Origin: Methylobacter sp.
Lineage (GTDB): Bacteria; Pseudomonadota; Gammaproteobacteria; Methylococcales; Methylomonadaceae
Length of the DNA stretch: 64,000 nucleotides
Direction of reading: 5' to 3'
NCBI GenBank assembly: GCA_036561025.1
Contig: DATBQB010000017.1
Span: 93,544 to 157,543, forward strand
This document shows, in pieces, positions 1-50,157 of the stretch (position 1 is its first letter; every line of letters begins with the position of its first letter). Both the position numbers and the translations under genes were made by a program. The notes under the pieces were generated by a model that was not told where the DNA came from, did no database searches, and was given only the letters and a program-made list of their open reading frames with translations.

Positions 1-2031
1 TCCCGGTGCGACCTGGATGATAGCGGCAAGCTCCGGAAATGCGCTTGCGCAAGCGGCGGTAAGCGCATCGTGATGCGGCCATTGGGAATTTTCGATGACA
101 GCCGTCAGCCACTGCCAGCTACCGCGTACCGGCTCTGTTTCCGGGTAAACCGGAAAATAACGCTGAGCCCGCCCTTCGTTATTAACCAAGGTGCCTTCGG
201 ATTCGGCGAAAGCCGCGGCTGGCAGCAACAACTCGGCATGCTCCGCGGTTTTATTTTTCAGGCTGTCTATGACGACCACATGCGCCGCAGCTTCAAAAAA
301 CAAATTCACATCTTGACCCGACGCCCGGCGGTAAAGATCGTTCTCAAGAATAATCACGCTATCGGCCGAACCGTTGCCGACTCGCTCGAAGGCTTGTTGC
401 AAACGTCTTCCACCCATTATTGCCAAGCCAAGGCTGTTACATTCAGGAACGGCAAACGTTAGTTGTTTGTCTTTTGACGCCAGCGCCTTGGCAACGTTGT
501 AGGCCGCCTGAATCACGGCAAGATTTGCACAACTGGTCCCCGATACAATCAACGGGCGTTTTGCGTGTTTCAGGCTGTCGGCGATAGTTGACGCCAAGGA
601 TTGTTCGGCATCGCTCAAAGCGCCAGGCGCGGGAGCCGAGTGATCAAGACCATGAGCGATTGCGAAGCCCAAACGGGCAATGTCTTCGGGGTTGCCTCGA
701 TAAGTATTAATAGCCGCATCGTCCAGCCGCGTCGCGCAAATGCTGGCAATGAACACCGGCGTTACGGCCTGTTTATCCAAATTTCTCACAGCGGCATCTT
801 GCCATGGCAATACATGCAGAGTGCCAGCCAGCTCGAACGATGCCTTACGCGCTGCCTGCCGCAGTGAAAGCGCCAGCCTTGGCGCGCTGTTGGTCACGTC
901 TTCGCCGAGAATCAATACCGCATCGGCTTGTTCGACTTCGCGTAGCGATGGAGAATGGATGCCGCCATCAAGCATCAGTTCGGCGATAGTATTAAGTAAG
1001 GTATGTTCCGTATCCTCCAAACCGAGGAAGAAGTTTTCCTCTCCAACCAGTGTACGCAAAGCGAAATTGGCTTCCAGAGAAGCGCGTGGAGAACCGATGC
1101 CTATCGCCGGCTTATCGGCTTGCAACAGGTTACGGAAATAGCTTTCCGCGGTATCGAGAGTGATATCAAGGTGTCCGTTAAGCAGCGGCTTTCGGATGCG
1201 TTCGGGACTGTTGACGAAACCGTATCCAAAGCGCCCTCTATCGCAAAGAAAATAGCCGTTGACCTGGCTGTTATAGCGATTGATGACGCGTCTGAGTTCT
1301 CCGTAGCGCTCTCCGGGAGCGGTGTTGCAACCCAAGCCGCAATGCACGCAAATCGACGGGGCGCTTTGTAAATCCCATTTGCGTACATAATGAGCACTGA
1401 AGGTTTTGTCGGTGAAAACTCCGGTCGGACAAACTTCGACCAGATTTCCGCTGAATTCGCTTTCCAGCGCGCCATCCTCAAAACGGCCGAAATAGACGTT
1501 GTTATGCATGCCCAAAACTTGAAGATCTTTGCCTCCAGCATACTCGTCATAGAAGCGCACGCACCGGTAACAGGCGATGCAGCGGTTCATTTCATGGTTG
1601 ATAAACGGGCCGAGATCCTGGTTATTATGGGTTCGTTTCAGGCCGCGGTAGCGGCGAAAAGTATGGCCGGTCATGACCGTCATGTCCTGCAAATGGCATT
1701 CGCCGCCTTCTTCGCACACCGGACAGTCGTGGGGATGGTTAGTCATCAGCAGCTCGATATTATCGCTGCGGAATTTCCGCGCCTGTTCTGCGTCCAATGA
1801 AATACGCATCGCATCGGCCACCGGCGTCATGCAGGCCATAACCAGCTTCCCCCGCTTGTCCTCCGCATCCTTGTACTGGATGATTGCGCATTGCCGACAA
1901 GCGCCAGCCGAGCCCATTGCCGGATGCCAGCAAAAATAGGGCAGATCCAGACCCAGCGATAAGCAGGCGGACAGCAGATTGCTGCCGCCCTGAACGTCAT
2001 AAGATTGTCCGTCGATTTCAATGCGGGGCAT
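1..2031 (-). CDS. nuoG: NADH-quinone oxidoreductase subunit G, 3' part runs off the window (absent from the ORF track because no stop lies in the window)
   Basis: Manual translation from ATG at 2031: MPRIEIDGQSYDVQGGSNLLSACL..., followed by Fe-S cysteine motifs (FCWHPAMGSAGACRQC; HDCPVCEEGGECHLQD). Start overlaps the nuoF stop (TGATG). Confidence 0.95.
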   Translation of the reverse strand, partial: MPRIEIDGQSYDVQGGSNLLSACLSLGLDLPYFCWHPAMGSAGACRQCAIIQYKDAEDKRGKLVMACMTPVADAMRISLDAEQARKFRSDNIELLMTNHPHDCPVCEEGGECHLQDMTVMTGHTFRRYRGLKRTHNNQDLGPFINHEMNRCIACYRCVRFYDEYAGGKDLQVLGMHNNVYFGRFEDGALESEFSGNLVEVCPTGVFTDKTFSAHYVRKWDLQSAPSICVHCGLGCNTAPGERYGELRRVINRYNSQVNGYFLCDRGRFGYGFVNSPERIRKPLLNGHLDITLDTAESYFRNLLQADKPAIGIGSPRASLEANFALRTLVGEENFFLGLEDTEHTLLNTIAELMLDGGIHSPSLREVEQADAVLILGEDVTNSAPRLALSLRQAARKASFELAGTLHVLPWQDAAVRNLDKQAVTPVFIASICATRLDDAAINTYRGNPEDIARLGFAIAHGLDHSAPAPGALSDAEQSLASTIADSLKHAKRPLIVSGTSCANLAVIQAAYNVAKALASKDKQLTFAVPECNSLGLAIMGGRRLQQAFERVGNGSADSVIILENDLYRRASGQDVNLFFEAAAHVVVIDSLKNKTAEHAELLLPAAAFAESEGTLVNNEGRAQRYFPVYPETEPVRGSWQWLTAVIENSQWPHHDALTAACASAFPELAAIIQVAPG

Positions 2032-3302
2032 CACACAGGCTCCATCGAGACGATATAGCGTTCAAAATCTTCGCGAAAATATTTAAGCGCGCTTTGCAAC
2101 GGTTCCACGGCTCCGGGAGCCAACGCGCAAAAGGTATTTCCGGGCCCCAGCATGCGGGTTAATCCTGCCAAGGTATCAAGGTCTTCGATGCGGCCTTTCC
2201 CGGCAATGATGTCTTTCAGTAAGGTTACCGTCCAGGGCAAACCGTCCCGGCACGGCGTACACCATCCGCAAGATTCCTGGGCAAAGAACTGTTCCAGATT
2301 CAGTACCATTTGCACCGGGCAAGTTTGGTCGTCAAGAACGATGATGGTTCCGGTACCCATTCGACTACCGGCTTTGGCTACAGCCTCAAAATCCATGACC
2401 ACATCCAGATGCTCGGGCAGCAAAAAATCGGTCGATGCACCGCCGGGCAAGAAGCCGCGCAGCTTGTAACCGTCGCGCATGCCGCCGGCATGTTGTTCGA
2501 TAATTTCGCGAATGGAGGTGCCCATCGGCAATTCCCATAAACCGGGATGTTTAACGCGGCCGCTGGCCCCGAATAGCTTGGTTCCCTTATCCGCGCCTCG
2601 CGCCAAGCCCTGATACCATTCGACGCCATAATGCAAAATGTGCGGCACGTTGCATAAGGTTTCGACGTTATTGACCACGGTCGGCTTGCCCCAAAGCCCG
2701 CTGACCAGCGGAAAAGGGGGTTTGGCTCTGGGCGTGGCCCGCTTTCCTTCCAACGCATTAATCAGAGCCGTTTCTTCGCCGCAAATGTAACGCCCTGCGC
2801 TGGTATGCAGAACTATCTCCAGGCAGAATTCAGAACCCAAAACATGCTCCCCCAGATAGCCTTTAGACCGGGCTTCCAGCAACGCATCAGCAAGACGCTG
2901 CTTGGCAAGGTGGTATTCCCCTCTCAGGAAGATGTAAGCGGTATTGGCCTGAATCGCATAGGACGCGATGATCAAGCCTTCGATTAGCTGATGCGGGTCC
3001 TGCTCTATCAGCAGCCTGTCCTTGAACGTTCCCGGTTCCATTTCATCGGCATTGGCAATCATGTAGCGGGTTTGCGGGGTATCCATAGGCACCATGCTCC
3101 ATTTGAGTCCTGTGCCGAATCCCGCTCCGCCGCGGCCGCGCAATCCGGCATCCTTTACCCATTGCTGCACGTCTTTCGGCTGCAACTCTGCGATTACCTT
3201 GCGCAACCCTTGATAACCGCCGGTGCTCTCGTAATCTGCCAGCGTCGCAAAGGCGCGGTCCGGTCGAATATTTTTAGTCAGCGGCTTATCCAAAGTTTCC
3301 AT
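2031..3302 (-). CDS. nuoF: NADH-quinone oxidoreductase subunit F
   Basis: GLRGRGGAGF, NADEMEPGTFKDR, YICGEETAL, ESCGWCTPCR and FCAL motifs; operon position. Confidence 0.97.
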   Translation of the reverse strand: METLDKPLTKNIRPDRAFATLADYESTGGYQGLRKVIAELQPKDVQQWVKDAGLRGRGGAGFGTGLKWSMVPMDTPQTRYMIANADEMEPGTFKDRLLIEQDPHQLIEGLIIASYAIQANTAYIFLRGEYHLAKQRLADALLEARSKGYLGEHVLGSEFCLEIVLHTSAGRYICGEETALINALEGKRATPRAKPPFPLVSGLWGKPTVVNNVETLCNVPHILHYGVEWYQGLARGADKGTKLFGASGRVKHPGLWELPMGTSIREIIEQHAGGMRDGYKLRGFLPGGASTDFLLPEHLDVVMDFEAVAKAGSRMGTGTIIVLDDQTCPVQMVLNLEQFFAQESCGWCTPCRDGLPWTVTLLKDIIAGKGRIEDLDTLAGLTRMLGPGNTFCALAPGAVEPLQSALKYFREDFERYIVSMEPV

Positions 3303-3308
3303 AGCGCG

Positions 3309-3788
3309 TTACCTTCCGAAAATCTCGTTAACTGCATTTTCGCCAAGGTCGAATCTCAACTGGTCGCCAACCATCGCGACCGGCGCATGATCGCAAGCGC
3401 CCAGGCACACAATCGGCAAAATAGTGTATTCGCCATCCGCAGACATTTCGCCCAACTCGACGTTCAAATGCCGACACAAACGCTCCTGCACCTGGTCGCT
3501 ACCCAGCATCCAGCAAGTAACGCTGTTGCAATAATGAATGACTGTTTTACCGACGGGCTGACGGTAAATCAGGTTGTAAAAAGTCGCCACCGCTTCCAGT
3601 TGCGCGGGCGATATTTCCAATAGCTCCGCCACGGCAACCAGACATTCGTCGGAAATCCAGCGGCGGTGTTTCTGAACGATTTTCAGCGCTTCGATAGAGA
3701 CCGCGGCTTTATCCGGATAATGACCTATCTCGGCGTTAATCTCCTCGATTTCAGCAGGACTTAAACCTTCAAAAATTGGCTCGTTCAT
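3309..3788 (-). CDS. nuoE: NADH-quinone oxidoreductase subunit E
   Basis: 2Fe-2S motifs CNSVTC and CLGACDHAP; operon position. Confidence 0.96.
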   Translation of the reverse strand: MNEPIFEGLSPAEIEEINAEIGHYPDKAAVSIEALKIVQKHRRWISDECLVAVAELLEISPAQLEAVATFYNLIYRQPVGKTVIHYCNSVTCWMLGSDQVQERLCRHLNVELGEMSADGEYTILPIVCLGACDHAPVAMVGDQLRFDLGENAVNEIFGR

Positions 3789-3789
3789 T

Positions 3790-5568
3790 TCAGCGGTCCA
3801 CGTCGGCCATCACAAAATCTATACTGGCTAATACCGCAACCAAGTCGGGAATCATCATTCCACGGCACATCATCGGAATCATTTGTAAATGCGGAAAAGA
3901 CGGTGTGCGGATACGGGTACGGTACGACATAGTGCCGCCATCGCTGGACAAATAGTAAGCGTTCAAACCTTTGGTGGCCTCGACGGTTACGCAGGATTCG
4001 CCGGCAGGAATCACCGGTCCCCAGCTTACATTCAGAAAATGCTGGATCAGGGTTTCTATATCATGCAGCGTTCTGTCTTTGGGCGGCGGCGTGGTCAACG
4101 GATGATGAGCTTTATACGGCCCTTCCGGCATGTTATCCAGGCATTGTCTGATGATGCGAAGACTCTGGCGCATCTCCTCGACCCGTACCGTGCAACGATC
4201 GTAACAATCGCCGTGACTCCCGGTAGGTATTTCAAATTCGTAATTTTCGTAGCCGGAATAAGGCCGTGCTTTGCGGTAATCCCATGCAAGGCCGGTGGCT
4301 CGCAGGTTTGGGCCGGTCGCGCTCCAATCGATGGCTTCCTCGGTGTTATACGCGCCAATCCCCTTTGTTCGGCGCTTGAGCGTACTGTTTTGCAACACCA
4401 GCTTGTCGTATTGATCCAGCCGGGCAGGCAAATAATCGATAAACTCGCGTATGCGTTTATCCCATCCTTTGGGCAAATCCATTACGACGCCGCCGATTCG
4501 AAAGTAACTGGCATGCATCCGCGCGCCGCTAATCGATTCCAGAATATCGAATACTTTTTCGCGATCGATAAACATATAAAAAATCGGCGACATTTGCCCC
4601 AAGTCCTGGGCATAAGTGCCGTAAAACAACAAGTGACTGGCGAGACGGTAGAGCTCGCAGATCATCACCCGGATGACTTGAGCGCGTTCCGGAACTTCGA
4701 TTCCGGCCAATTGCTCCACGGCAAGCACATAAGGCAGATTGTTCATCGAGCCGCCCAAATAATCGATCCGGTCCGTATAAGGGATATAGGTGTGCCAGGA
4801 CTGCCGTTCGCCCATCTTTTCCGCGCCGCGATGGTGATAACCGATGTCCGGCAGCGCATCGACAATCTCTTCTCCATCCAGTTGTAACGCAATGCGAAAC
4901 ACACCATGAACACTGGGGTGATTGGGGCCCATATTCAGGAACATGAAATCGCTGTCTTCGCTGTGCCGCCGCATGCCCCAATCCTCCGGCACGAAGCGCA
5001 AGGCGTCTTGTTCGATGTCCTGTTGCTCGTCGGAAAGACTAAAAGGTTCCATTTCGGTCGCTCGGGCATAATGATCTTTACGTAGCGGATAGCCCTGCCA
5101 AGTCGGCGGCATGATGATGCGCCGAAGATGCGGGTGACCTTCAAAAACGATGCCGAACATATCCCATACTTCGCGCTCGTACCAGTTGGCAGAGGGCCAA
5201 ATATTGCTGATCGTCGGAAGCGACAAGTCGGCTTCGGTCAATGCAACTTTGAGACGGATATCCTCGTTGCGTTCAAACGAGAGCAAATGATAGACAACGG
5301 TAAACTCACTGTCGGGAAGACCTTGCCGCTGAGCGCGCTGACGCTCGTCGATGGCCGTCAGGTCGAACAATAAACCATAGGGCGGAACGGCCTGCAATTT
5401 CAGATAGAAGAGAATAACGCGCAGGTTCTGCCGGGAAACCCAAAGCGTAGTTATGCCGTCGCGAGTCGACTGGATCGCAAAGCCGTTTGCGCCAATTTGC
5501 TCGGTCAGTTCGCGCACTATCCGAGGAGCGTCAGCAGGAATATCGATGTTGTCAGCGTTACTGTCCAA
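3790..5568 (-). CDS. nuoC: NADH-quinone oxidoreductase fused subunit C/D
   Basis: NuoC part ([21 protein letters not shown]) fused to NuoD part ([27 protein letters not shown]). Start moved to TTG at 5568, which follows an AAGGGG RBS. Confidence 0.95.
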
Positions 5569-5615
5569 TGAATTCCCCTTTGCACTTATTAACAGGTAAA
5601 TCAATTATCAAATAC

Positions 5616-5670
5616 TCACCACGAAGACACGAAGGACACGAAATTTTATTTCTTCGTGTCTTCGTGGTGA
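5616..5670. repeat. Perfect 19-bp inverted repeat between nuoB and nuoCD (CACGAA-ladder element, short copy)
   Basis: TCACCACGAAGACACGAAG (5616-5634) and CTTCGTGTCTTCGTGGTGA (5652-5670) are exact reverse complements. Confidence 0.9.
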
Positions 5671-5694
5671 ATAATAAATAAGTTACCGCTAGAG

Positions 5695-6333
5695 CTATAT
5701 CTCGTCTGGGCTTCTCAACTGCCGGGTATGCATTCTTTCTTCCGTCAGTAAATCGCGGTAACTGAGCTTGGGCGGCTTGATTACAGTTTGATCGCCAACA
5801 GTCCAGCTTAGCGGCCGCCTTTCTTTGCCTATCGCATCCTGCAACAGCATCAATCCTTGCTGCAAGGCCTCAGGCCTAGGCGGACAGCCCGGCACGTAAA
5901 CATCCACCGGTAAGAATTTGTCTACTCCTTGCACAACGCTGTAAATATCATACATACCGCCGGAGTTGGCGCAGGAACCCATGGATATGACCCAGCGCGG
6001 CTCCAACAGTTGATCGTAGAGCCGCTTGACTACCGGCGCCATTTTTCTAAAAACAGTACCGGAAATGACGATCAGATCCGCCTGACGCGGCGATCCCCTA
6101 ATCACTTCAGAACCAAAACGGGCAATGTCATGGCGACTGGTCAATGCGGTCGCCATCTCCACATAGCAGCAAGATAAACCGAAGTTAAAAGGCCAGACGG
6201 AATTGGACTGCCCCCAAGCGACCATATCCTCAAGTTTGGCGAACAGGAAATTGCGCCGTAGCGCTTCATCGTAAGTCTGCTGACCGTGTTGTGGGGTGGA
6301 ACCGGTTTCCGCTTTGGTTAAAGTCCAATGCAT
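5695..6333 (-). CDS. nuoB: NADH-quinone oxidoreductase subunit B
   Basis: [31 protein letters not shown] and E. coli-like C-terminus LRSPDEI. Likely start MHWTLTK at 6333. Confidence 0.96.
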
Positions 6334-6343
6334 AGTTTTCCCC

Positions 6344-6772
6344 CTATGATCCGATGTTGCGCTGCCTGCGGGTACGCCAATCAAGAGCCCCAATAGCCCA
6401 CAAGTAAATCAATGCAGCGATCAATACGCTTATAAATATCAATGCTTCGATAAAACCGGACCAACCGGATTCTTGTAATGCCACCGACCAGGCAAACAGG
6501 AACACGCTTTCCATATCGAAAATAACAAAAAAGATGGCAAGCAAGTAAAACTGAACGGAAAAGCGAATATGTACATCACCCGCAGCAACAATCCCTGATT
6601 CAAACGGTTCGTCGGCAGCTTTGGCACGATGTCTCTGGCCCAACAGGTATGCGCCACCTAACATGATGCCGGTGACCGCAACTACGGCTCCGAAATAAAT
6701 GATCAGTTGGAGCAGATTGGCAGCAAGAATAACTTCGGAGTTCTGCATATCAGAGAGCCTCAATTTATCCAT
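6344..6772 (-). CDS. nuoA: NADH-quinone oxidoreductase subunit A
   Basis: Three hydrophobic segments; PFESG and [15 protein letters not shown] motifs. Start may be 6748. Confidence 0.95.
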
Positions 6773-7160
6773 AAAAGATTAAAGATATGAACTCAACAAC
6801 GGAAGGTTTTTTAGTCTTACTTAGCCTTGTAAGTAACCTCTTTCAATCGAAAAATTTACCGACACACCGATGATGCTTTAAAGCTTAATTTTTAAAGGAT
6901 TATGAACCATTTTATTCATGAAGGGGAGAAAAAAATATTAGTACAAATGCCTATCTGATCAGGAAGCTGTTTCAGCCAATGACAAAAATTTTTTATGCGC
7001 AAGCTTTTTGGGAAGTAGCCGTATCATGCGCCCTCGCTATTTTCTATACGTAGTTTGCACAACTTGACGTTTTTACGACATTAAAAGCATCATGTTAAAA
7101 CGTTGGGCAGTTGTATGAAAGCGATGCAATAGTTGACTATTGTTTTGAGAGAGGTAAAGA

Positions 7161-7514
7161 ATGAAGGCACACACAATGCTAACAGCGCTCCTACTGGTGG
7201 TTTGCGGTTTGTATAGTGGGGCCAATTGGGCTCATGGTCATCTCGGCTTTTATTTTGGCGCACCGATTTATCCTTATTATCCGTATTCGTCCCCTTATTA
7301 TTATCCTTACCAATCCCCCTATTATTATCCACCGACGATAATCACTATTCCCGTTACACCGCCTACTTATATACAGCGGTCGCCGCAGCCTAGCCAACAA
7401 TATCCGTCCGGTTACTGGTATTACTGCAATAATCCCAAAGGTTATTACCCTTATGTCAAGCAATGCTCAGAAAGCTGGCAAGAAGTTGAGCCGGTACCGT
7501 CCACACCGCGTTAA
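7161..7514 (+). CDS. Exported Tyr/Pro-rich hypothetical protein
   Basis: Signal-peptide-like N-terminus, PYYPYSSPYYYP low-complexity run, C-terminal YWYYC...GYYPYVKQC; RBS GAGAGG upstream. Confidence 0.7.
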   Translation: MKAHTMLTALLLVVCGLYSGANWAHGHLGFYFGAPIYPYYPYSSPYYYPYQSPYYYPPTIITIPVTPPTYIQRSPQPSQQYPSGYWYYCNNPKGYYPYVKQCSESWQEVEPVPSTPR

Positions 7515-7525
7515 GGAGTCTTAAT

Positions 7526-8056
7526 ATGCCGCGTTTAATTCTAATGTTTTCGGCCATGGCGATACTGACGGTCACCGGCTGCGTCAGTTTGCCCAGCGGG
7601 CCCAGTGTTATGGTGCTGCCGGGTACCGGTCTATCTTTCGAACAGTTTAGTAACGATAATGTTATCTGCCAGCAATATGCTTCGCTCCAGGTTGGCGGCA
7701 CCAGCGCTAATGAAGCAGCGGTAAAAAGCGGAGTCACTAGCGCCGCAGTCGGCACGGCGCTAGGTGCGGCAGCCGGCGCTGCAATCGGTGGAGGAGAGGG
7801 TGCGGCCATTGGAGCCGGTAGCGGCTTGGTGGGCGGCAGCCTGGTTGGTGCCGGCGCCGCCAATACCTCGATGTACGAAGCGCAGGAGCGCTACGATGCG
7901 GCTTTTATTCAATGCATGTATGCCAAAGGCCATCAGGTTCCTGTGTCCGGGCAGTTCTCATATCAATCGTCCCGCCGTGCTGCGCCGCCAGCCTCGCAAA
8001 TTCCGCCGCCTCCGCCCGGATCGCCGACGCCGCCTCCTCCACGCCAACAGCCATAA
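7526..8056 (+). CDS. Glycine-zipper lipoprotein with Pro-rich tail
   Basis: Lipobox-like LTVTGC, glycine zipper GTALGAAAGAAIGGG...GAGSGLVGG, CQQYA and QCMYAKG motifs; RBS AAGGAG. Confidence 0.8.
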   Translation: MPRLILMFSAMAILTVTGCVSLPSGPSVMVLPGTGLSFEQFSNDNVICQQYASLQVGGTSANEAAVKSGVTSAAVGTALGAAAGAAIGGGEGAAIGAGSGLVGGSLVGAGAANTSMYEAQERYDAAFIQCMYAKGHQVPVSGQFSYQSSRRAAPPASQIPPPPPGSPTPPPPRQQP

Positions 8057-8095
8057 CCAGCAAGCTTATTTAACTGATGTTGCATCACTAAAGCA

Positions 8096-8263
8096 TAGTC
8101 CACGAAAAGCACAAAAGGCACGAAAAAAAACCGTGTACAGAAAGCATGTAACTGCAATTAAGAAGATAACAAATTCGGAGGTATTGTAGGGGCGACTTTT
8201 CTCCGTAAATAAAACATACGACTCTACTGTTTTTCGTGCCTTTCGTGGACTAATTTTTAGGTT
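8096..8263. repeat. Palindromic MITE-like element (CACGAA-ladder family), long copy
   Basis: Left arm TAGTCCACGAAAAGCACAAAAGGCACGAAAAA, right arm TTTTTCGTGCCTTTCGTGGACTAATTTTTAGGTT; arms homologous to 36288-36456. Confidence 0.8.
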
Positions 8264-8362
8264 GAACGCTGTTTAGATAATAATTCGTTGTTCAGTAACA
8301 TAGTCGGTAGCCCGAAATCATCAAACGTGCGAGGATAATCAAAGCCCAACATTTCATCAGGA

Positions 8363-9214
8363 ATGCTTATGAACCCAAACCACTTTTTAACGTCCGCTTA
8401 CGGCGTACGGATACCCCGGATTATTTACGGTACGGCCTGGAAGAAAGACCGCACGGCGGCATTGGTAGAACAGGCTATCGAACTGGGTTTTCGCGGCATC
8501 GATACCGCCTGCCAGCCCAAGCATTACAACGAAGCGGGTGTCGGCGACGGCATGGCCGCCTGCCTGCAGCGAGGGATAGATCGTAGCGAGCTTTATCTGC
8601 AAAGCAAATTCACGTCGCCCAGCGGCCAAGATCCGATGCAAATGCCTTATGACCCCAACGCCGAACTCGGCGAGCAAGTAGCGCAATCATTCCAGGCCTC
8701 ACTGAGAAATCTGCAAACCACTTATTTGGATTGCCTGGTGCTGCATTCGCCACTGGCAAACCTACACCACACTCTGGAAGTATGGCAGGCGATGGAGCAA
8801 ATCTTTCACAGCGGCGGCGTCAAACAACTGGGAATCAGCAATTGCTACGATCCCCAACAGTTTGAGCTATTGTATCAAAATGCGACTGTTAAACCGGCTG
8901 TTATCCAGAACCGTTTTTATGCGGAGACCCAGTACGACCGCGTCATCCGCGCTTTTTGCCGGGAGCATCGGATAATTTACCAAAGCTTCTGGACGCTGAC
9001 CGCGAATCCCAATGTTTTGGCTCATGCCACGCTGCAAACGTTGGCGGCGAAATACCGGTGTAGCGCTGCCCAGATATTTTTCCGCTACTTGAGCCAAATC
9101 GACATTATTCCGTTAACCGGCACCACATCGGAAAGCCACATGCGGGAAGACCTTGCGATTTTCGATTTTGAACTGGCTGCCGACGAACGAGATGCTGTAG
9201 AAGTGTTACTTTAA
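8363..9214 (+). CDS. Aldo/keto reductase family protein
   Basis: GFRGIDTA..Y, ELYLQSKF, YLDCLVLHSP, LGISN and PAVIQN motifs. Confidence 0.9.
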   Translation: MLMNPNHFLTSAYGVRIPRIIYGTAWKKDRTAALVEQAIELGFRGIDTACQPKHYNEAGVGDGMAACLQRGIDRSELYLQSKFTSPSGQDPMQMPYDPNAELGEQVAQSFQASLRNLQTTYLDCLVLHSPLANLHHTLEVWQAMEQIFHSGGVKQLGISNCYDPQQFELLYQNATVKPAVIQNRFYAETQYDRVIRAFCREHRIIYQSFWTLTANPNVLAHATLQTLAAKYRCSAAQIFFRYLSQIDIIPLTGTTSESHMREDLAIFDFELAADERDAVEVLL

Positions 9215-9216
9215 CT

Positions 9217-9744
9217 ATGATGACGTTGACGCTATCGATATCCAAAGCTGAAAAACAGGATGCCGGACAAATTGCTGCGCTGGTTAACTCGGCTTATCGC
9301 GGCGAGTCCAGTCAACAAGGTTGGACCTCGGAAGCTGATTTACTGACCGGGCTTAGAACCGAGGTGGAAGAAATCCTACGATTGATTTCAAGTGACGATT
9401 CGATGTTTTTGCTGTGTAAGGCTAAAGTAGATCTGATTGGGTCGGTGCATTTGCAGAAACAGGCAGAGCAGGTTTGCCTTAGCATGCTGGCAGTAAATCC
9501 GCCGTTACAGGGAAGAGGCATAGGCAAGCAATTGCTGCTTGCAGCAGAGCTGGCCGCACAGCAAACCTGGTCCGTCAATAAATCGGTTATGACCGTCATC
9601 TCATGCAGGAGCGAACTGATCGCGTTTTACGAGCGGCGCGGTTATCGGCGCACAGGAGTAAGCAAAAAGTTTCCGGTGAATCCGGAGCTATGGATGCCTA
9701 AAGTTGCAGGTTTGCGATTGGAAATATTAGAAAAAGCGCTGTAG
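9217..9744 (+). CDS. GNAT family N-acetyltransferase
   Basis: AVNPPLQGRGIGKQLL acetyl-CoA motif and FYERRGY. Confidence 0.9.
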   Translation: MMTLTLSISKAEKQDAGQIAALVNSAYRGESSQQGWTSEADLLTGLRTEVEEILRLISSDDSMFLLCKAKVDLIGSVHLQKQAEQVCLSMLAVNPPLQGRGIGKQLLLAAELAAQQTWSVNKSVMTVISCRSELIAFYERRGYRRTGVSKKFPVNPELWMPKVAGLRLEILEKAL

Positions 9745-9850
9745 ATTTGGAACTTAGCGCATCACTATGTAGGCCGACGTAATCTCTATCAGGCTACTGC
9801 CGGTTTTATCGTTGCCTGATGCCCCGGTGTCCGATAATAGCCGCTTTCAT

Positions 9851-9896
9851 ATTCAGCCTTGTCGGGCATAAACAGCATTGCCCGACAAGGCTGAAT
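9851..9896. terminator. Perfect 18-bp hairpin between convergent genes (bidirectional terminator or REP-derived)
   Basis: ATTCAGCCTTGTCGGGCA-N10-TGCCCGACAAGGCTGAAT. Confidence 0.7.
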
Positions 9897-9904
9897 TTAT
9901 TTGT

Positions 9905-10165
9905 CTAATGTATCGGAGAAGTTGTCGACCATTCTCGCATTGCTTGATCTCCTGGACGATCTATTTTAACTTTATTGCCTTCGATTGATCGTACCCAGCT
10001 TACCGGAATGTAATGATGCTGGCCTCTCTTATCTTTTTTCAGTTTAATCACATTCGCCCCCTCCATATGATCGACAGTGGCAAACTGTCCGTCTTGGGAG
10101 CAGACAACGGGCATCTCAGGTTTAATCTGTTCGGTATTAATCATAGTTTTCTCCTGTTGGTTCAA
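9905..10165 (-). CDS. DUF2171-like small protein
   Basis: VVCSQDGQFATVDHMEG..IKLKKD..GQHHYIPVSWV pattern. Confidence 0.75.
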   Translation of the reverse strand: MNQQEKTMINTEQIKPEMPVVCSQDGQFATVDHMEGANVIKLKKDKRGQHHYIPVSWVRSIEGNKVKIDRPGDQAMREWSTTSPIH

Positions 10166-10418
10166 TTTGAGCCAGTTCTATTGAAAATTGTTGATCGGCA
10201 TTCAGACACGGTTTGAAAACACTACCATTTTCGGACTTTAACTGGATTACTCGATTTTTATTAACGAATGAGTTCCCTGCATACTCCATTAAATCCCCCA
10301 GTCTGTATTTTAAATTTACATAGATAATTAAAATCGGTCTGTGCGACTTCGTACATAGGGTTTGGAGACTTTATAAAACCCGTTTTTAAAAGTTGAGTAC
10401 GCGTAATATTGACCCGCA

Positions 10419-10676
10419 TTCATGTTTTTATCTGCGCCGGTTTCGGAAAGTAGCGTTTCAGCTTCCGGCACATGGTTGATCCCGATACGCACAGTAACTT
10501 GGCGGTCTCTTTCCGGCTTTATTTAATATCTCAATCTGGTATCTTTGTGCTTGGCTTAGCTGTTTTTAGTTTCTCATACGCTTTCTCATCTTTGGTCGAA
10601 TTAAAAAAACCTGAATCTAATCAGCTAACCTTTTTCTTTTCCGATCAATGTCGATTACACTTATGAGTTGAATCTA
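10419..10676 (-). pseudogene. Decayed IS30-family transposase 5' fragment with candidate left end
   Basis: Minus-strand translation from 10577: MRN*KQLSQAQRYQIEILNKAGK, then frameshift, then ETAKLLCVSGSTMCRKLKRY, matching the IS30 N-terminal HTH pattern. Candidate terminal repeat TAGATTCAACTCATAAGTGTAA at 10676-10655. Confidence 0.65.
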
Positions 10677-11177
10677 AGAACCGTATTGAATTACTATGGA
10701 ACATAAAGACTATCTTCAAATATTTCCATCTGATGAACTTGAGCCCCCCATTGATGAAATTGATACAGGATTTAGTTCAAAATACATGCTGATTTTTTGC
10801 TAAACGCTATTTTCGTGCAGCTTTTAGGAGACTGTCCGATTACAACTCAATCAAAACATAACGCATTGAAACAATTGAAATATTATTTTTTAGTAAAACA
10901 GCAAAAAATCAATATCCTTCAAAATGGACTTACCTAATGCAAACAATTATCGACTTAACGGAGCTTGCTGAAGGTGACATTATGCTTAATTATTTTAAAA
11001 GAAAAATTATGACAAATGTTTTAGTGGTTCAAGTTGCTCAACCAAAATTATCTTTGCCGACCTTTCGGCATACCGCTACGCTACTTCATTCACCAATAAC
11101 TTCATGGATTACTCTACCTCCTCTGTCCTTCGGATTGCATCTTTTGCATTCACGCAGTCATCGTGCAGGATGACATT

Positions 11178-12584
11178 ATGAGTAACAGTCATGCCATTAT
11201 TCTTGCCGGCGGCAGCGGCAGTCGTCTCTGGCCGCTTTCGCGCACATTACGTCCCAAACAGTTGCTTCCGCTCGATGGCGAACGCACTTTGTTGCAACAA
11301 ACAGCAAATCGTTTGCTCAAGCATGTGAATGCCGAATGCTTGTTAACGGTGACTCATCAGGATCACAAGTTTGAGGTAAAGGGACAGTTGGCCGAAGTCG
11401 ATGCCCGGCTTCCTACTGCGGTATTGGCCGAACCTTGCGCGCGCAATACCCTGCCCGCGATTGCTTGGGCGGTATGGGAAATTTTTAAGCAGGATCCTGA
11501 CGGCACGGTCGGCGTTTTTCCTTCCGATCATGCAATTGGCGACGAACAAAGCTTTCTTTCGGCTTGGCGATCTGCCGAACTGGCGGCAGCAGACGGTTAT
11601 CTGGTATTGCTTGGCATCACGCCATCCGAACCGGCGACCGGTTACGGCTATATTCAACCTGGGGAATCCCTGAATATTCAGGCCGCAGTCAACCCGGTTT
11701 TGAGCGTGTCCCGTTTTGTCGAAAAACCGGCTCTGGAAAACGCAATAAAATTTGTCGAAAACGGTTACTTGTGGAATAGCGGTATGTTCGTATTCCGTGC
11801 CGGCGATTTTATGCAAATGCTGGAGCGGCATCAGCCTGAAATCCACCGGGCCATAACCTCCATGTCGGGAATGGCCGACGTGGAAGCGTCTTATGACAAA
11901 CTGCCGAATCTATCCATTGATTACGGTTTGGCCGAAAAAGCGAATAAAGTGGCGGTGGTGCCTGTGTCTATGGGCTGGAGCGATCTCGGCAGTTGGGAGT
12001 CTATTTATCAGCATCGCGACAAGGATGAAGCCGGCAATGTCGCCCAGGGCGATATTCTGGTGCATGACACTCAAGACAGCCTGCTATGGAGCTCGAACGG
12101 CCTGCTGGCTACTTTGGGCGTACGGAATATTGCGGTGATTCAGACCGCTGACGCGACATTAATTTGTGATCGAAACCGCACGGAAGACATCAAACAATTG
12201 GTCGCACTAGTACAGCAAACCCATCCTCATTTGACTGAAACGCATTTGACGGTACATCGTCCTTGGGGAATATACAGAGTGTTGGAAGAGGGACCTAATT
12301 TCAAGATCAAATGTATTATCGTCAATCCCGGAGCCAAGCTCTCCATGCAAATGCATAAACACCGCTCAGAGCACTGGGTTGTGGTATCCGGCGCAGCCAA
12401 AATCACTAATGGCCAACAGGAAATCAACTTGGAAGCCAACCAATCAACCTATATTCCCAAAACCCATCCGCATCGATTGGAAAACCCCGGCGACATTCCC
12501 TTGCAAATTATCGAGGTACAATGCGGCGAGTATGTGGGAGAAGACGATATTGTGCGTTTCGATGATACCTACGACAGAGCATAA
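11178..12584 (+). CDS. manC: Mannose-1-phosphate guanylyltransferase / mannose-6-phosphate isomerase
   Basis: [38 protein letters not shown] and C-terminal cupin HRPWG...HRSEHW. Confidence 0.95.
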
Positions 12585-46260: not shown

Positions 46261-47094
46261 ATAAATATTTCAGTTATTATTCCCAGCTATAATCGCCGCG
46301 AGCTGCTAAAACGCGCACTATTTTCCGTGTATTCCCAATCCTTATTACCGGCAGAAGTTGCGGTAATTGATGACGGATCCACCGATGGCACGGAACAAAT
46401 GCTCCGCCAAGAATTTCCTCAGGTAAGCCATTACTATCAGCAAAACCTTGGCGTCAGCGCAGCACGCAATCTCGGCATACAAAAGACATCCGGGGACTGG
46501 CTGGCTTTTCTGGATTCCGATGATGAATGGTTGCCTGAAAAACTGGCCAGCCAGAAAGCGAAATTGGAAGCCAACCCTGAACACAGGATTTGCCACACCG
46601 AAGAAAACTGGATACGCAATGGGACCCAGGTTGGCGTGCCTACAAAATACGTCAAAACAGGCGGCTGGATATTTACCGACTGCTTACCGCTCTGCGCTAT
46701 ATCACCGTCCACCGTATTGATACACCGCTCGGTATTTGCAGACGTCGGCCTGTTTGACACCCAACTGCCTGCTTGTGAAGACTATGACCTATGGCTCAGA
46801 ATCAGCGCATATTACCCGGTTCTATTGGTCGAACAACCGCAAATAAACAAGCATGGCGGCCATGAAGACCAGTTGTCTATGGCGTTCTGGGGAATGGATC
46901 GATTCCGGATCAGCGCTTTGCAAAAAATCATTGATGGGGGTCAATTATCCGGGCAAAACCGGCAGGCGGCGGTAAATATGCTGGTAAAGAAAGCCACTAC
47001 TTATCTTAACGGCGCGACAAAACGTGGCAAAGTCGACGAAGCAAACTATTACCAACAGCTCATCAAACGCTATTCAATAGAAGAAATTATTTGA
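46261..47094 (+). CDS. Glycosyltransferase family 2 whose reading frame extends to an ATA codon
   Basis: The frame upstream of the ORF-track start gives (I)NISVIIPSYNRRELLKRALFSV; then IDDGSTD, FLDSDD and CEDYDLW. An in-frame TAA lies at 46249. Confidence 0.8.
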   Translation: MNISVIIPSYNRRELLKRALFSVYSQSLLPAEVAVIDDGSTDGTEQMLRQEFPQVSHYYQQNLGVSAARNLGIQKTSGDWLAFLDSDDEWLPEKLASQKAKLEANPEHRICHTEENWIRNGTQVGVPTKYVKTGGWIFTDCLPLCAISPSTVLIHRSVFADVGLFDTQLPACEDYDLWLRISAYYPVLLVEQPQINKHGGHEDQLSMAFWGMDRFRISALQKIIDGGQLSGQNRQAAVNMLVKKATTYLNGATKRGKVDEANYYQQLIKRYSIEEII

Positions 47095-47725
47095 TTCTAA
47101 AACTACAGTTGCAATCGCCCTTGGCCATGCAACTTAACTGCTCAACTTCTTTATCCAACAACGAGGACATAAGCGCCAGATCGAACTCGCATATCTCATG
47201 ATGTTTCTGGGCCAGATCGTGATAAATACAATTATAAGCCTGCATCTGCGGGCTTTCAGTTTCGGATTCCGGGCCTACTTTTACCTGAAAACCAAAATCT
47301 GTCATGACTATGGCCAGCTCATAGATACGTTCGTTTAGGCTTTTCCCTTCGAATTTGCCGCGCAGCTTATCTGCGAGCTTGCTGCCCAGCTTTTGCATAT
47401 AGGCTTTAAAACGTTCGTCGCCTATTTCCTGTTGCAAATCGCCAAGAATTAACGCTGAAAACCAAGCATACTGTTTCGGAAAATAGTTATTGCCTTTGTC
47501 GGTTATGACGTAGATAGTCACAGGACGTCCGGCTGTTTTATTGAATGTGCTTTTTTTGATATAGCCATCCCGCTCAAGAACAACAAAGTGCTGTTGGACA
47601 CCCGTTCTTGAAATATCCAGCGCTTTAGCCAACTCATCAACGCTCAACCCTTTCCTGTTTTCTAACAAATGTTCAAGTATTTGATGTTGGCGGGAACTTA
47701 TCTTTTGAAGCATTAGCGGATTCAT
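47087..47725 (-). CDS. SufR-like winged-HTH regulator with C-terminal Cys cluster
   Basis: HTH (LSVDELAKALDISRTGVQQH, GRP...Y..T..G) plus NC-X12-C...C...DCNC, resembling the Fe-S-binding SufR C-terminus. Confidence 0.75.
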   Translation of the reverse strand: MNPLMLQKISSRQHQILEHLLENRKGLSVDELAKALDISRTGVQQHFVVLERDGYIKKSTFNKTAGRPVTIYVITDKGNNYFPKQYAWFSALILGDLQQEIGDERFKAYMQKLGSKLADKLRGKFEGKSLNERIYELAIVMTDFGFQVKVGPESETESPQMQAYNCIYHDLAQKHHEICEFDLALMSSLLDKEVEQLSCMAKGDCNCSFRIK

Positions 47726-47835
47726 CCTCTTGTCATGACTTTATTGCTAAGTATACAATAATAATTTGTTATGACATATTTAACTTGTAAAAGTTTTATA
47801 TAGCAAAAAATCGTCTGTTGTTATAAACTTCTATA

Positions 47836-47851
47836 TGAGCAAGTTTGCTCA
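47836..47851. promoter_or_regulatory. Candidate operator in the divergent regulator/globin promoter
   Basis: TGAGCAA-GT-TTGCTCA palindrome 35 bp upstream of the globin start. Confidence 0.4.
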
Positions 47852-47886
47852 AATAAGAATAATGACACTATACAATACTGGAGACA

Positions 47887-48282
47887 ATGATGAGCGATTC
47901 ACAAGAAACAAATTCAGGCCAATCACTATATGAAAAACTCGGCGGCGAAGCGGCTGTTAATGCTGCGGTAGATATTTTTTATCGTAAGGTATTGGCAGAT
48001 CACCGTATTAACCGTTTTTTCGACAATTCCGACATGGAAAAACAAGCCGCCAAACAAAAAGCCTTTTTGACGATGGCATTCGGCGGTCCAAATAACTATA
48101 ACGGTCAAGATATGCGTAATGCTCATGCACATCTGGTCAAAATGGGCTTAAATGCAAGTCATTTTGATGCTGTCATGGAGCACCTTGGCGCAACATTAAC
48201 CGAGTTAAATGTACCGGCAGAACTGATCGGCCAAGCTGCTGCTATTGCGGAAAGTACACGCAACGACGTATTGGGCAAATAA
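47887..48282 (+). CDS. glbN: Group I truncated hemoglobin (trHbN)
   Basis: SLYEKLGG, IFY (B9-B10), QKAFL..AFGGP..Y.G, proximal AH and HFDAV. Confidence 0.9.
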   Translation: MMSDSQETNSGQSLYEKLGGEAAVNAAVDIFYRKVLADHRINRFFDNSDMEKQAAKQKAFLTMAFGGPNNYNGQDMRNAHAHLVKMGLNASHFDAVMEHLGATLTELNVPAELIGQAAAIAESTRNDVLGK

Positions 48283-48294
48283 CTGAAATACCAG

Positions 48295-49281
48295 GTGGAG
48301 ACCATGCGAAGCATAACTATTGGCGAATCAACATTTTCCTGTCAACCGGATGAGACTGTATTGGAAACCCTGTTAAGGGAAAACATACAAGTACCTAATG
48401 GTTGTCGCCAAGGACTTTGCCAAGCCTGCCTAATGCGCAGTATTGACAACCCTCCACCTGTCTCAGCCCAAGTCGGCCTTAAAGATACCTTGCAAAAGCA
48501 GAACTACTTTCTGGCTTGCGTTTGCCATCCTGAGCAGGATATGACCGTTGCTTTGCCCAACCAGCAAGGCGCTTCAATTGAAGCTGTCGTTATCAAAAAA
48601 CAACTGTTAACGCCCGATATCGTACAGTTGGTTTTGGAATACCAAACCGAGTTTAATTTTTTCGCAGGTCAATTCGTTAATTTAAAACGGCCCGATGGCT
48701 TAATCCGCAGCTATTCGATTGCGAATATCCCGCATCATAAAAAGATCCTCGAGTTTCATATTCGTCGCTTACCGAACGGTCAGTTCAGCAGCTGGGTCTA
48801 TGATGAATTGGAGTTAGGCACTCAATTAACCATCTCGGAAGCGCAAGGTTCTTGCCATTATCTACCGGGACGTGCAGAACAGCCCTTATTGCTGATCGGA
48901 ACCGGCAGCGGTCTGGCACCGCTTCACGGCATTATTGCCGATGCTTTGGCGCAAGAACACTCAGGGCCTATTCACTTGTTCCATGGCAGCCGCGATCTTA
49001 ACGGTCTGTATTTCATTGACGAAATGCGTGAACTTGCTGAGGAGTTTGATAATTTTTATTACACTTCCTGTCTTTCCGGAGAAGAGATTGAATCGGATCA
49101 CGTTCGAGGCCGCGCTCATGACATTGCCTTATCATCCATTGAAACTCTGAGCGGATGGCGCGTTTTCCTGTGCGGACACCCGGAAATGGTCAATCAAACC
49201 AAAAGAATGGCATTTATGAAAGGCGCGTCTATGGCTGATATTTACGTAGATGCTTTCCATGTGGCGCAGGAAAAGAAATAA
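48295..49281 (+). CDS. 2Fe-2S ferredoxin-FAD/NAD(P)H oxidoreductase
   Basis: GCRQGLCQAC...LAC, RSYSIAN, GTGSGLAP and VFLCGHPEMV. Confidence 0.92.
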   Translation: METMRSITIGESTFSCQPDETVLETLLRENIQVPNGCRQGLCQACLMRSIDNPPPVSAQVGLKDTLQKQNYFLACVCHPEQDMTVALPNQQGASIEAVVIKKQLLTPDIVQLVLEYQTEFNFFAGQFVNLKRPDGLIRSYSIANIPHHKKILEFHIRRLPNGQFSSWVYDELELGTQLTISEAQGSCHYLPGRAEQPLLLIGTGSGLAPLHGIIADALAQEHSGPIHLFHGSRDLNGLYFIDEMRELAEEFDNFYYTSCLSGEEIESDHVRGRAHDIALSSIETLSGWRVFLCGHPEMVNQTKRMAFMKGASMADIYVDAFHVAQEKK

Positions 49282-49290
49282 ACAAACTTG

Positions 49291-49325
49291 TAAAAAAGGC
49301 AATGTTGCTTAGCGCAAGCAACATT
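49291..49325 (-). terminator. Hairpin with a minus-strand U-tract between the reductase and phosphorylase genes
   Basis: AATGTTGCTT-AGCGC-AAGCAACATT; on the minus strand it is followed by GCCTTTTTT. Confidence 0.45.
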
Positions 49326-49332
49326 CGCCCTT

Positions 49333-50157
49333 ATGAATAAATCAAACCCACCCCAAATTTTTATCTACGCCGCGCTGCCCTGCGAGGCCAAGCCGCTGGT
49401 CGAGCATTTCGGATTAAAAAAAGCGACTACGATCCAACCGTTCGCAGTTTACCTCAATCAGGACATCTGCCTGACGGTAACCGGACTGGGAAAAAGCGCG
49501 ATGGCTGCCGGAGTGGCTTACACACAGGCATTATTTGCTGAAACTGAGCACCCGGTTCTGCTTAATATCGGTATCGCCGGGCATAAAGACCATGCTGTGG
49601 GTGGCTTGTTTTTAATCGACAAAATCACCGATGCTGACAACCTGAAAAGCTATTATCCGCCGCTGGTTTTCACGCCGCCTTGCCCCACTGCAAATATCCA
49701 AACGGTATCAAGGCCGCAGCTTAACTATGACCGGCACACTCTTTGCGATATGGAAGCGTCTGCCTTTTATGAAACTGCGGTACGATTTTCGACAGGTGAA
49801 TTAATTCAATGCCTGAAAGTTATTTCGGATAATGAATCATTGCCGGCCGAAAACATCCAGCCCAAGCAGGTTGCTTCACTAATAGCCGCGCATGTCGAAA
49901 CGATTAATCTCTTATTGGCAGAGTTAAGCCGTCTGGCGAAGCTGATAACTGCGCCGGAACCCAAACTGTTTGAACAACTGACGCAGCGCTACCATTTTAC
50001 GGTCAGCGAACAGGGACAGCTAAAAAACCAGCTGTCCCGTTGGGCGGCCTTAACTCACAACCAAGCCCTTGAATTTGATGAAACCCGGCTGCATAAAGGC
50101 AAAGATGTTTTACTGTGGCTGGATCAACAAATCAGTAAAATCGAGTTTTGTTTGTGA
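49333..50157 (+). CDS. Purine/MTA nucleoside phosphorylase-superfamily protein
   Basis: ALPCEAKPL, TGLGK, LNIGIAG, CDMEASAF and LKVISDN. Confidence 0.7.
   Translation: MNKSNPPQIFIYAALPCEAKPLVEHFGLKKATTIQPFAVYLNQDICLTVTGLGKSAMAAGVAYTQALFAETEHPVLLNIGIAGHKDHAVGGLFLIDKITDADNLKSYYPPLVFTPPCPTANIQTVSRPQLNYDRHTLCDMEASAFYETAVRFSTGELIQCLKVISDNESLPAENIQPKQVASLIAAHVETINLLLAELSRLAKLITAPEPKLFEQLTQRYHFTVSEQGQLKNQLSRWAALTHNQALEFDETRLHKGKDVLLWLDQQISKIEFCL

Follow-up and report, generated by a model that had tools for sequence, protein, structure and literature searches.

We report a comparative analysis of a divergent gene locus within a 64,000-nucleotide stretch of the Methylobacter sp. assembly GCA_036561025.1 (contig DATBQB010000017.1, positions 93,544 to 157,543), hereafter called the window, in which a predicted transcriptional regulator is encoded back to back with a truncated haemoglobin (trHb) and an iron-sulfur flavoprotein reductase. 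The elements named in the initial annotation of this DNA, namely the regulator, the divergent spacer, the globin and the reductase, are all present as judged from open reading frames and domain matches, and the nearest named proteins come from Methylobacter sp. with 96% identity. The genes of the locus are the following.

47087..47725, minus strand: SufR-like (COG2345-type) regulator, open reading frame of 212 aa, likely true start at 47713 (208 aa); N-terminal winged helix-turn-helix (wHTH) domain with a GRP AT-hook, dimerisation helix, and V4R/TRAPPC3-like sensor domain with C166, C179, D182 and C207
47890..48282, plus strand: group I truncated haemoglobin (trHbN/GlbN type), 130 aa; ribosomal-binding site (RBS) GGAG at 47880-47883
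48304..49281, plus strand: reductase of 325 aa, in which a plant-type 2Fe-2S ferredoxin domain precedes an FNR-like FAD/NAD(P)H module

The regulator and globin genes are divergent and separated by 161 bp. Since a Shine-Dalgarno sequence abuts the first ATG of the regulator, M5 at position 47713 is the more likely start, giving the 208-aa protein that is annotated in relatives. The reductase frame is open from a GTG at 48295; RBS position and ortholog alignments indicate that translation probably starts at 47890 for the globin and at the ATG at 48304 for the reductase. With these starts the two genes are 21 nt apart and not 12, as had been proposed, although the proposed order of trHbN followed by reductase is borne out.

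By its sequence, the regulator is a SufR-like member of the COG2345 family and not a true SufR. The cyanobacterial SufR model TIGR02702 aligns to the whole protein (E-value 5e-23), which, together with the COG2345 hallmark residues described below, agrees with its initial description as SufR-like; the score is 81.9 bits (81.4 bits in a genome-wide search) versus a cut-off of 178.8, and none of ten further representatives tested, scoring 52-105 bits, reaches that cut-off. This score, and the presence in the genome of a suf operon with its own Rrf2 regulator, argue against a true SufR. The N-terminus matches many wHTH families, and the C-terminus gives weak Pfam and NCBIfam matches to MetOD1, V4R and MsvR. 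In an AlphaFold (AF2) model of the regulator (pLDDT 84.7), the best Foldseek matches are the sensor domains of MopR, PoxR and DmpR (E-value 4e-5), and a TRAPP core appears at rank 10; a likeness to TRAPPC3 was also reported for the COG2345 regulator ArnR (PMC12343034).

The SufR-like COG2345 family was defined from a cryo-EM structure in which Mycobacterium tuberculosis (Mtb) SufR is bound to DNA (preprint, December 2025, 10.64898/2025.12.26.696629). Its hallmarks are a wHTH that bears a GRP AT-hook on its wing, a helix 3 with an RRH motif, of which R50 and H52 are conserved in most members, and a dimerisation helix (10.64898/2025.12.26.696629). In the sensor domain of Mtb SufR, a [4Fe-4S] cluster is held by C179, C192, E195 and C220; the fourth position carries a metal-binding residue (Glu, His, Asn, Asp or Cys) in >96% of COG2345 members, and the protein reads flanking A/T tracts over roughly 30-37 bp of DNA (10.64898/2025.12.26.696629). 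We compared the regulator with SufR and ArnR using hidden Markov models and residue spacings quoted from the papers. The putative ligands of the regulator, C166-x12-C179-x2-D182-x24-C207, have the same spacing as those of Mtb SufR, C179-x12-C192-x2-E195-x24-C220. Residues G66-R67-P68, H46, C166, H169, C179, D182 and C207 do not vary among the 24 orthologues aligned, and C199 is kept in 23 of them. Of the previously noted cysteine motif NC-X12-C...DCNC, the second Cys of DCNC (C207) is thus conserved, but the first (C205) is not. The GRP AT-hook in the wing of the wHTH is found in all 30 locus-derived regulators.

An exhaustive profile search with the regulator gave 4817 matches at E 1e-3, 2123 representative clusters at 1e-10 and 192 at 1e-30, which makes the family a large one, and residues were counted in the top 128 representatives of full length. 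Of these, 123 have GRP, the fourth-ligand position is Asp in 97 and Glu in 15, and the last Cys lies at x27 in most. Helix 3 of the regulator, as placed without a direct alignment to Mtb SufR, reads ISRTGVQQH, in which both Arg of the RRH motif are replaced by Gln and H46 is the invariant residue; variation at the RRH positions of helix alpha-3 is noted in the preprint (10.64898/2025.12.26.696629). The regulator is predicted to hold a [4Fe-4S] cluster.

The globin matches PF01152 with an E-value of 7.6e-21 (75 bits), and its closest solved relatives are group-1 trHbs, namely the Tetrahymena protein 3aq5 (E-value 9e-36) and cyanoglobins (E-value 1e-34). In the alignment with 3aq5, Tyr B10, Gln E7, Gln E11 and His F8 correspond to Y32, Q53, Q57 and H80 of the globin, which align with Tetrahymena residues 25, 46, 50 and 73. 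A distal pocket formed by Tyr B10, Gln E7 and Gln E11 is tied to NO dioxygenation. The reductase contains the Pfam domains Fer2, FAD_binding_6 and NAD_binding_1, in this order, with 2Fe-2S ligands C37-x4-C42-x2-C45-x29-C75 and the motifs RSYSIA and GTGSGLAP. It shows the features of class I-type ferredoxin-FNR proteins (BenC/MmoC/T4moF-like: CX4CX2C...C, RxYS, GTGxAP), and its relatives in the PDB (5ogx, 7c3a, 4wqm and 1krh) reflect a resemblance to the reductases of carbazole, toluene and benzoate oxygenases. Since it falls under every NCBIfam equivalog cut-off, the reductase is not a named enzyme.

The association of the regulator with the globin and reductase genes is conserved. Regulator orthologues were found in 67 of 151 sampled Methylococcales genomes and in 6 of 400 sampled Gammaproteobacteria. 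Among the best 30 regulator loci, the globin-reductase pair is divergent in 26, convergent in two and absent from two. The globin gene adjoins the regulator in 68 of 80 named loci, down to 43% regulator identity; all 80 are from Methylococcales, including Methylobacter, Methylovulum, Crenothrix, Methyloglobulus, Methylomicrobium and others. The neighbourhood conservation that had been suggested as a check on the locus is therefore seen in both sets, 28/30 and 68/80. In a maximum-likelihood tree of 49 reductases, a branch with support of 95/96 separates the copies divergently linked to the regulator from the others, and the reductases of the two convergent loci are the sister group of this clade. 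Conserved synteny and a single reductase clade can thus be explained by one ancient association.

Outside these lineages, the orthologous operon shows signs of another regulator. Globins with 60-83% identity were found in 68 of 400 sampled Gammaproteobacteria, and the orthologous reductase directly follows the globin in 21 of 28 loci of other orders. The motif ATGYAT-N5-ATRCAT, which we take to be the core of the gammaproteobacterial NsrR box, occurs with at most one mismatch in 15 and with at most two mismatches in 22 of 27 loci without a SufR-like link, as compared with 0.3% and 4.3%, respectively, in shuffled controls of those loci. In the 81 intergenic regions linked to SufR-like genes, the same core with at most one mismatch is found in none, and with at most two mismatches in six (~7%, like their own shuffles). 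In the intergenic region of the window the best match to the NsrR box has four mismatches, which is the chance level. An NsrR-like gene is divergent to a globin-reductase operon in three of the genomes (G425, G004 and G150), and the protein in the first of these scores 144.7 bits against the NsrR model, its best Rrf2 match.

Several Methylobacter genomes have two globin-reductase operons a few kb apart, one behind an NsrR-like gene and one behind a SufR-like gene. In M. tundripaludum SV96 (G150), nsrR is divergent to glb2-red2, followed by one unrelated ORF and by red1-glb1 divergent to the SufR-like gene; the NsrR-linked copy carries a perfect NsrR box, AAGATGCATTAAGAATACATCTT. Such double-operon loci are L172 (G150:C1:2281800-2288600, M. 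tundripaludum SV96 type), L034, L045, L046, L049, L050 and L107.

The genome of the window keeps only the version linked to the SufR-like gene. This genome is 4.75 Mb in size and 100% complete by markers, and it encodes a single copy of the regulator. Its sufB gene (C57:45409-46785) lies on a contig other than that of the window (C17), directly downstream of a gene for an Rrf2-type SUF regulator that passes the TIGR02944 cut-off (154.7 bits vs 110.65), and the only other Rrf2 protein of the genome is IscR. A search for NsrR in this genome gave no match at E 1e-25, and a search for the flavohaemoglobin Hmp likewise found none. Having a chance-level box and no NsrR gene in its genome, the locus does not belong to an NsrR regulon. 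The SufR-like regulator thus stands on an operon for which related bacteria use NsrR, and this swap is real and conserved. The earlier description of a repurposed SufR-like regulator acting instead of NsrR is a fair one, as the regulator is not tied to suf, and NsrR boxes are found elsewhere but not here. A bona fide NorR (722 bits) is encoded elsewhere in the genome, and a 394-aa open frame containing an FNR-like reductase domain lies about 2.5 kb away (G000:C34:48037-52678); this frame may belong to an hcp-hcr cluster, the NO reductase of Methylobacter according to Yu et al. 2020 (PMC6977074).

The 161-bp intergenic region contains both repeats reported by the initial annotation, TGAGCAA-GT-TTGCTCA and a looser repeat at 47731-47776, as well as a third symmetric element. 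Its features are listed below.

47768..47776: (A/G)TTATGACA, a conserved element that lies upstream of the dyad and is the looser repeat's right arm
47782..47811: candidate operator, an AT-rich block of 30 bp located at about -54 to -25 of the globin promoter, overlapping the -35
47801-47806 and 47824-47829, plus strand: sigma-70 promoter predicted for the globin operon, with -35 TAGCAA, 17-nt spacer, -10 TAAACT
47836-47851, plus strand: perfect 7-2-7 palindrome TGAGCAA-GT-TTGCTCA, unique in the window, starting 7 nt after the -10

The promoter register is shared by 68 distinct orthologous intergenic regions (-35 TTGCAT, TTGTAT or TAGCAA; 17 nt; -10 TATTAT, TACACT or TAAACT). Among 31 promoter clusters with less than 70% identity, the block over the -35, conserved at -55 to -27 in this alignment, has a mean information content of 0.94 bit per column vs 0.19-0.29 in the flanks, and its family consensus is a 15+15 AT-rich dyad, AACTTwTA..ATATA / TATAT..TAwAAGTT. 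In the window, the left half and centre of the dyad form the palindrome AACTT-GTAA-AAGTT (47782-47795), and the candidate operator sequence is unique (0.04 occurrences expected). The same design, ATATATA-TTGnAT-AAG, precedes non-homologous genes that are divergent to paralogous regulators, which argues that the block is the putative operator of the family and not merely inherited promoter sequence. A long AT-rich block also fits the AT-hook mode of SufR and ArnR, whose footprints are AT-rich and ~30 bp long. A 42-nt profile of the Methylobacter promoter block found no second site in the 4.75-Mb genome, only the locus itself; the shorter pattern AACTT-N4-AAGTT occurs 12 times in this genome with no obvious pattern.

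The perfect palindrome at 47836-47851 is probably not an operator, since its stem sequence changes from genus to genus while the recognition helix and the AT-hook of the regulator are invariant; the AT-rich dyad over the -35 is the better candidate. The palindrome sits at the predicted transcript start, and a hairpin is found at its position in nearly all of the 68 orthologous leaders, with stems that vary by clade (GAGCAA/TTGCTY, GGGCAA/TTGCTC, GAGTAA/TTACTC, GTAAGC/GCTTAC, GGTAGG/CCTACC and GTAGCCAA/TTGGTTAC). These stems show two-sided changes, and 72 of 491 pairs are G-U; the mean z score of the leader hairpins is -2.1 vs shuffles, and the sense strand is the more stable one in 47 cases vs 19 for the antisense strand, counts that overstate the case because related leaders are not independent. 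Support for the stem-loop comes from per-sequence folds, shuffles, strand asymmetry and the listed two-sided changes, the loops being of different lengths, and no Rfam family was found for it. The palindrome is most likely the 5'-terminal stem-loop of the globin mRNA, a structure that probably stabilises this very abundant message. The arms of the looser 9-nt inverted repeat (47731-39 and 47768-76) are 89% complementary. The element at 47768-47776 is kept as ATTATGACA or ATTATGCCATAA in many genera, and a promoter scan assigns it to a minus-strand promoter as the -35; it could belong to the promoter of the regulator itself, for which there are two mutually incompatible candidates, or be a second site.

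Expression of the locus was assessed in a sister species using Table S5 of Yu et al. 2020 (PMC6977074), which gives RNA-seq data for M. tundripaludum 21/22 (replicate 1 values are used here). The cultures were the wild type grown with ammonium or nitrate and sampled under oxygen depletion, and a TunJ (tundrenone) mutant on ammonium. The gene run in 21/22, consisting of Rrf2, hemoglobin, reductase, two others, reductase, hemoglobin, an 'ArsR family' regulator and a glycosyltransferase, matches that of strain SV96.

SufR-like regulator: wild type on ammonium 29, wild type on nitrate 535, TunJ mutant on ammonium 290
glb1 (globin beside the SufR-like gene): 2098, 5216 and 8413 in the same order
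red1 (reductase of glb1): 400, 1263 and 1199
glb2 (NsrR-side globin): 94, 11439 and 234

The regulator, globin and reductase rise together, as predicted by a shared operator, and the levels of the regulator and glb1 are positively correlated across six conditions. The basal level of glb1 is very high (1475-2098 units in strain 21/22). A group I trHb was also among the ten most transcribed genes in Methyloprofundus.

The closest functional precedent for the locus is ArnR of Corynebacterium glutamicum, a COG2345 protein that, like the regulator described here, consists of a wHTH and a C-terminal Cys-rich sensor domain (PMC12343034). ArnR is a [4Fe-4S] holo-repressor whose signal is NO rather than O2, di-nitrosylation ending its DNA binding; in an organism without NsrR, it represses the flavohaemoglobin gene hmp and narK (PMC12343034), with an AT-rich footprint of ~30 bp (PMC12343034, 10.64898/2025.12.26.696629). 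ArnR differs from the present regulator in being actinobacterial, encoded downstream of narKGHJI, and directed at a fused flavohaemoglobin and nitrate reductase, whereas the regulator of the window is proteobacterial, divergently linked to its putative target and apparently local; the three conserved Cys residues of ArnR lie at 179/193/223, unlike the x12/x27 spacing here. A group I trHb gene followed by one for a ferredoxin-reductase-type protein is found in Legionella pneumophila, whose glbN-ferredoxin-reductase bicistron is placed under NsrR in Gardner's review (PMC3820574), which cites Rodionov et al. 2005; there, the regulator is the Rrf2 protein NsrR with an ATGYAT-N5-ATRCAT box, in contrast to the COG2345 regulator and AT-rich dyad of the window. 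SufR of cyanobacteria and actinobacteria (TIGR02702; Rv1460 in Mtb) shares the domain architecture, the GRP AT-hook and the spacing of Cys and acidic ligands with the regulator, and it follows an autoregulated holo-repressor logic, the Mtb cluster being NO-sensitive. However, SufR controls sufBCDS at its own operon, whereas the regulator is not near suf and differs in its fourth ligand (Asp, not Glu) and in helix 3 (QQH, not RRH). Hmp under NsrR or NorR is comparable in its globin plus FNR-like reductase chemistry and in its induction via an Fe-based NO sensor, but it is a single polypeptide with a 3-on-3 globin and no 2Fe-2S domain. The initial statement that no characterised example of such an arrangement was known is thus too strong given ArnR with hmp and the NsrR-controlled bicistron of Legionella. 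The trHbN-reductase module, its control by NsrR, and the control of a haemoglobin gene by a COG2345 protein in one actinobacterium are already known.

The best-supported reading of the locus follows the ArnR precedent. We judge it fairly probable that the regulator acts as a holo-[4Fe-4S] repressor on the dyad and that NO or a related oxidant releases it, so that a split NO dioxygenase is set free. The trHbN globin and its own NAD(P)H:2Fe-2S/FAD reductase would then correspond to a flavohaemoglobin split into two proteins, an NO-dioxygenase-type module. A regulator dimer with one [4Fe-4S] cluster per subunit on C166/C179/D182/C207 would bind the AT-rich dyad by the AT-hook (GRP) of the wing together with the HTH, thereby occluding the -35 of the globin promoter and restraining its own back-to-back promoter. 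Once its cluster was nitrosylated or damaged by oxidation, the regulator would leave the DNA, and the regulator, globin and reductase would all rise, the high steady-state level of the message being supported by the 5'-terminal stem-loop.

Several observations weigh against this reading or limit it. That this regulator binds a cluster, which DNA site it uses and whether it represses or activates are inferred, and in Mtb SufR the substitution E195D abolishes the cluster (10.64898/2025.12.26.696629), leaving Asp as the fourth ligand here unproven. The right half of the long dyad is degenerate in Methylobacter. The genes of strain 21/22 were mapped by order, lengths and annotation, not by sequence, and in that strain glb1 goes up only ~2.5-fold on nitrate from its high basal level, whereas the NsrR-linked globin goes from 94 to 11439; glb1 also goes up 4-fold when the tundrenone mutant is grown on ammonium, a condition to which the NsrR-linked copy hardly responds. 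These differing responses of the two modules argue for a signal that is not identical to that of NsrR.

The differing profiles of the coexisting modules are among the reasons to consider that the same parts report O2 tension, oxidative stress or Fe-S status and not NO, in which case the abundant globin, which the reductase would keep in the ferrous state, would buffer or deliver O2 (for pMMO or oxidases) or scavenge it at the oxic-anoxic interface. The very high basal expression of the globin and the top-ten rank of the Methyloprofundus trHb would fit such a role, as would the response of cyanobacterial SufR to redox and iron status. Methanotroph trHbs of other groups have been reported to go up under suboxia. 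However, the characterised COG2345 clusters, those of DNA-bound Mtb SufR and ArnR, react slowly with O2 and quickly with NO, nearly everywhere else the orthologous operon is a target marked by an NsrR box, and the globin shares the conserved Tyr B10, Gln E7 and Gln E11 with the solved group-1 trHbs that match it best. Nitrate with hypoxia, the condition that also fires the NsrR target, raises both the regulator and the globin, and on balance we regard an O2 or redox signal as somewhat unlikely. The geometry of the promoter raises a different doubt about repression, as the dyad centre near -39.5 suits a class II activator, and the positive correlation between regulator and globin across the six conditions could mean that more regulator, or an altered cluster state, turns the globin promoter on. 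Derepression of a shared operator predicts the same co-induction of divergent genes, the globin promoter has a workable -35 and -10 at 17-nt spacing with high basal expression, and the characterised family members, SufR and ArnR, are all holo-repressors, which makes activation unlikely.

The chemistry of the sensor domain offers a further choice, in which it would hold Zn or use thiol-disulfide chemistry in the manner of V4R-type domains (the zinc site of MopR/PoxR, or MsvR) and bind no Fe-S cluster. The top Foldseek matches are zinc-containing phenol-sensor domains, the weak MetOD1, V4R and MsvR matches point the same way, and C199 and H169 are additional conserved residues; against this, the ligand spacing matches the cryo-EM [4Fe-4S] site of Mtb SufR residue for residue, and the fourth position is metal-binding in >96% of COG2345 members, so that we consider a Zn or thiol sensor quite improbable. 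The automatic JGI annotation of relatives as 'suf operon transcriptional repressor' would make the protein an ordinary SufR for Fe-S biogenesis that lies beside the globin by chance. This is highly improbable in view of the score of 81.9 bits vs 178.8, the position of sufB on another contig under a TIGR02944 regulator, the lack of a second operator-profile site in the 4.75-Mb genome and the order-wide synteny with the globin.

Beyond the single locus, the double-operon genomes raise the possibility, which we put forward tentatively, that Methylomonadaceae-type methanotrophs have two parallel haemoglobin-reductase modules under two Fe-S sensors with split NO/O2 handling, of which the genome of the window keeps only the COG2345-run one. 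The NsrR module would then serve as an emergency NO response, and the COG2345-run module would be highly expressed and finely tuned, its cue being low NO, hydroxylamine-derived NO, hypoxia or redox state. Methylobacter cultures have been reported to emit NO under O2 limitation or from nitrate, and the locus bears on the biology of methanotrophs of oxic-anoxic interfaces. M. tundripaludum provides a natural control, having a similar operon a few kb away under NsrR, such that two Fe-S sensors can be compared in one cell.

According to the preprint, ArnR is the only non-SufR member of COG2345 with known targets (10.64898/2025.12.26.696629). In full-text literature searches we found no paper on a COG2345 regulator of a trHbN-reductase operon, and none describing a COG2345 target in Proteobacteria other than suf. 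With this locus the family gains a third target, strongly supported by comparison and the first in Proteobacteria, and, if the two-module proposal is true, the regulator would be the first COG2345 protein of Proteobacteria for which a regulon other than suf is defined. The analysis also identifies the likely control of a group I trHb, whose transcript is reported to be among the most abundant in a relative, and a putative dedicated trHbN reductase, which has long been missing from trHbN research in model species.

In some other Gammaproteobacteria, apparent di- and tri-globin fusions were found, with two to three trHbN domains per 272-402-aa open frame and no internal stops (G481:C38:13351-14499, G491:C6:18740-19504, G218:C3:129744-130499, G235:C108:15517-16290 and G415:C36:23144-23914). 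No reductase gene adjoins these fusions in the four loci examined (L142, L145, L150 and L157).

At the borders of the locus, two further features were noted.

49301..49325, no strand: hairpin with an 11-bp stem after the reductase gene
46327-47094: family-2 glycosyltransferase gene, convergent with the regulator

The strong hairpin sits between the reductase and a plus-strand PNP_UDP_1 nucleosidase-like gene at 49333-50157. Its role in termination of the plus-strand operon is uncertain, since a T-run is present only on the minus-strand side, and it looks like a terminator for antisense transcription and not for the globin operon. The 3' ends of the glycosyltransferase and regulator genes overlap by 8 bp (47087-47094). 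In strain 21/22, the glycosyltransferase signal rises with that of the regulator, from 30 to 279, which may represent read-through or antisense signal in an unstranded library.

Regulators paralogous to the one described here were found in Methylomicrobium and relatives, where they are divergent to genes for a two-domain multicopper oxidase and a 604-aa cupredoxin/beta-propeller protein (intergenic regions L010, L066, L071, L076, L086 and L087; e.g. L076:3595-3971). The mRNA leaders of the multicopper oxidase genes, 200-300 nt in length, contain a conserved long-range stem, ACTGGAGCTTC ... GGAGTTCCAGT, around a CCGGCTGCTCACCGG hairpin; no Rfam family matched them at gathering score, and they could represent an undescribed leader or riboswitch. 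Another paralogue (L099:2683-3867, a Methylovulum metagenome-assembled genome; L111) is divergent to a gene for an HPP-family membrane protein with CBS domains, which likewise has the AT-rich block over the -35 in front of it. In cyanobacteria and plastids, HPP proteins are nitrite transporters, and the HPP paralogue hints at an N-oxide theme for the regulator family. Should the proposal of two modules be true, the multicopper-oxidase and HPP-CBS paralogues would form a small family of N-oxide or redox switches with one AT-hook operator design.

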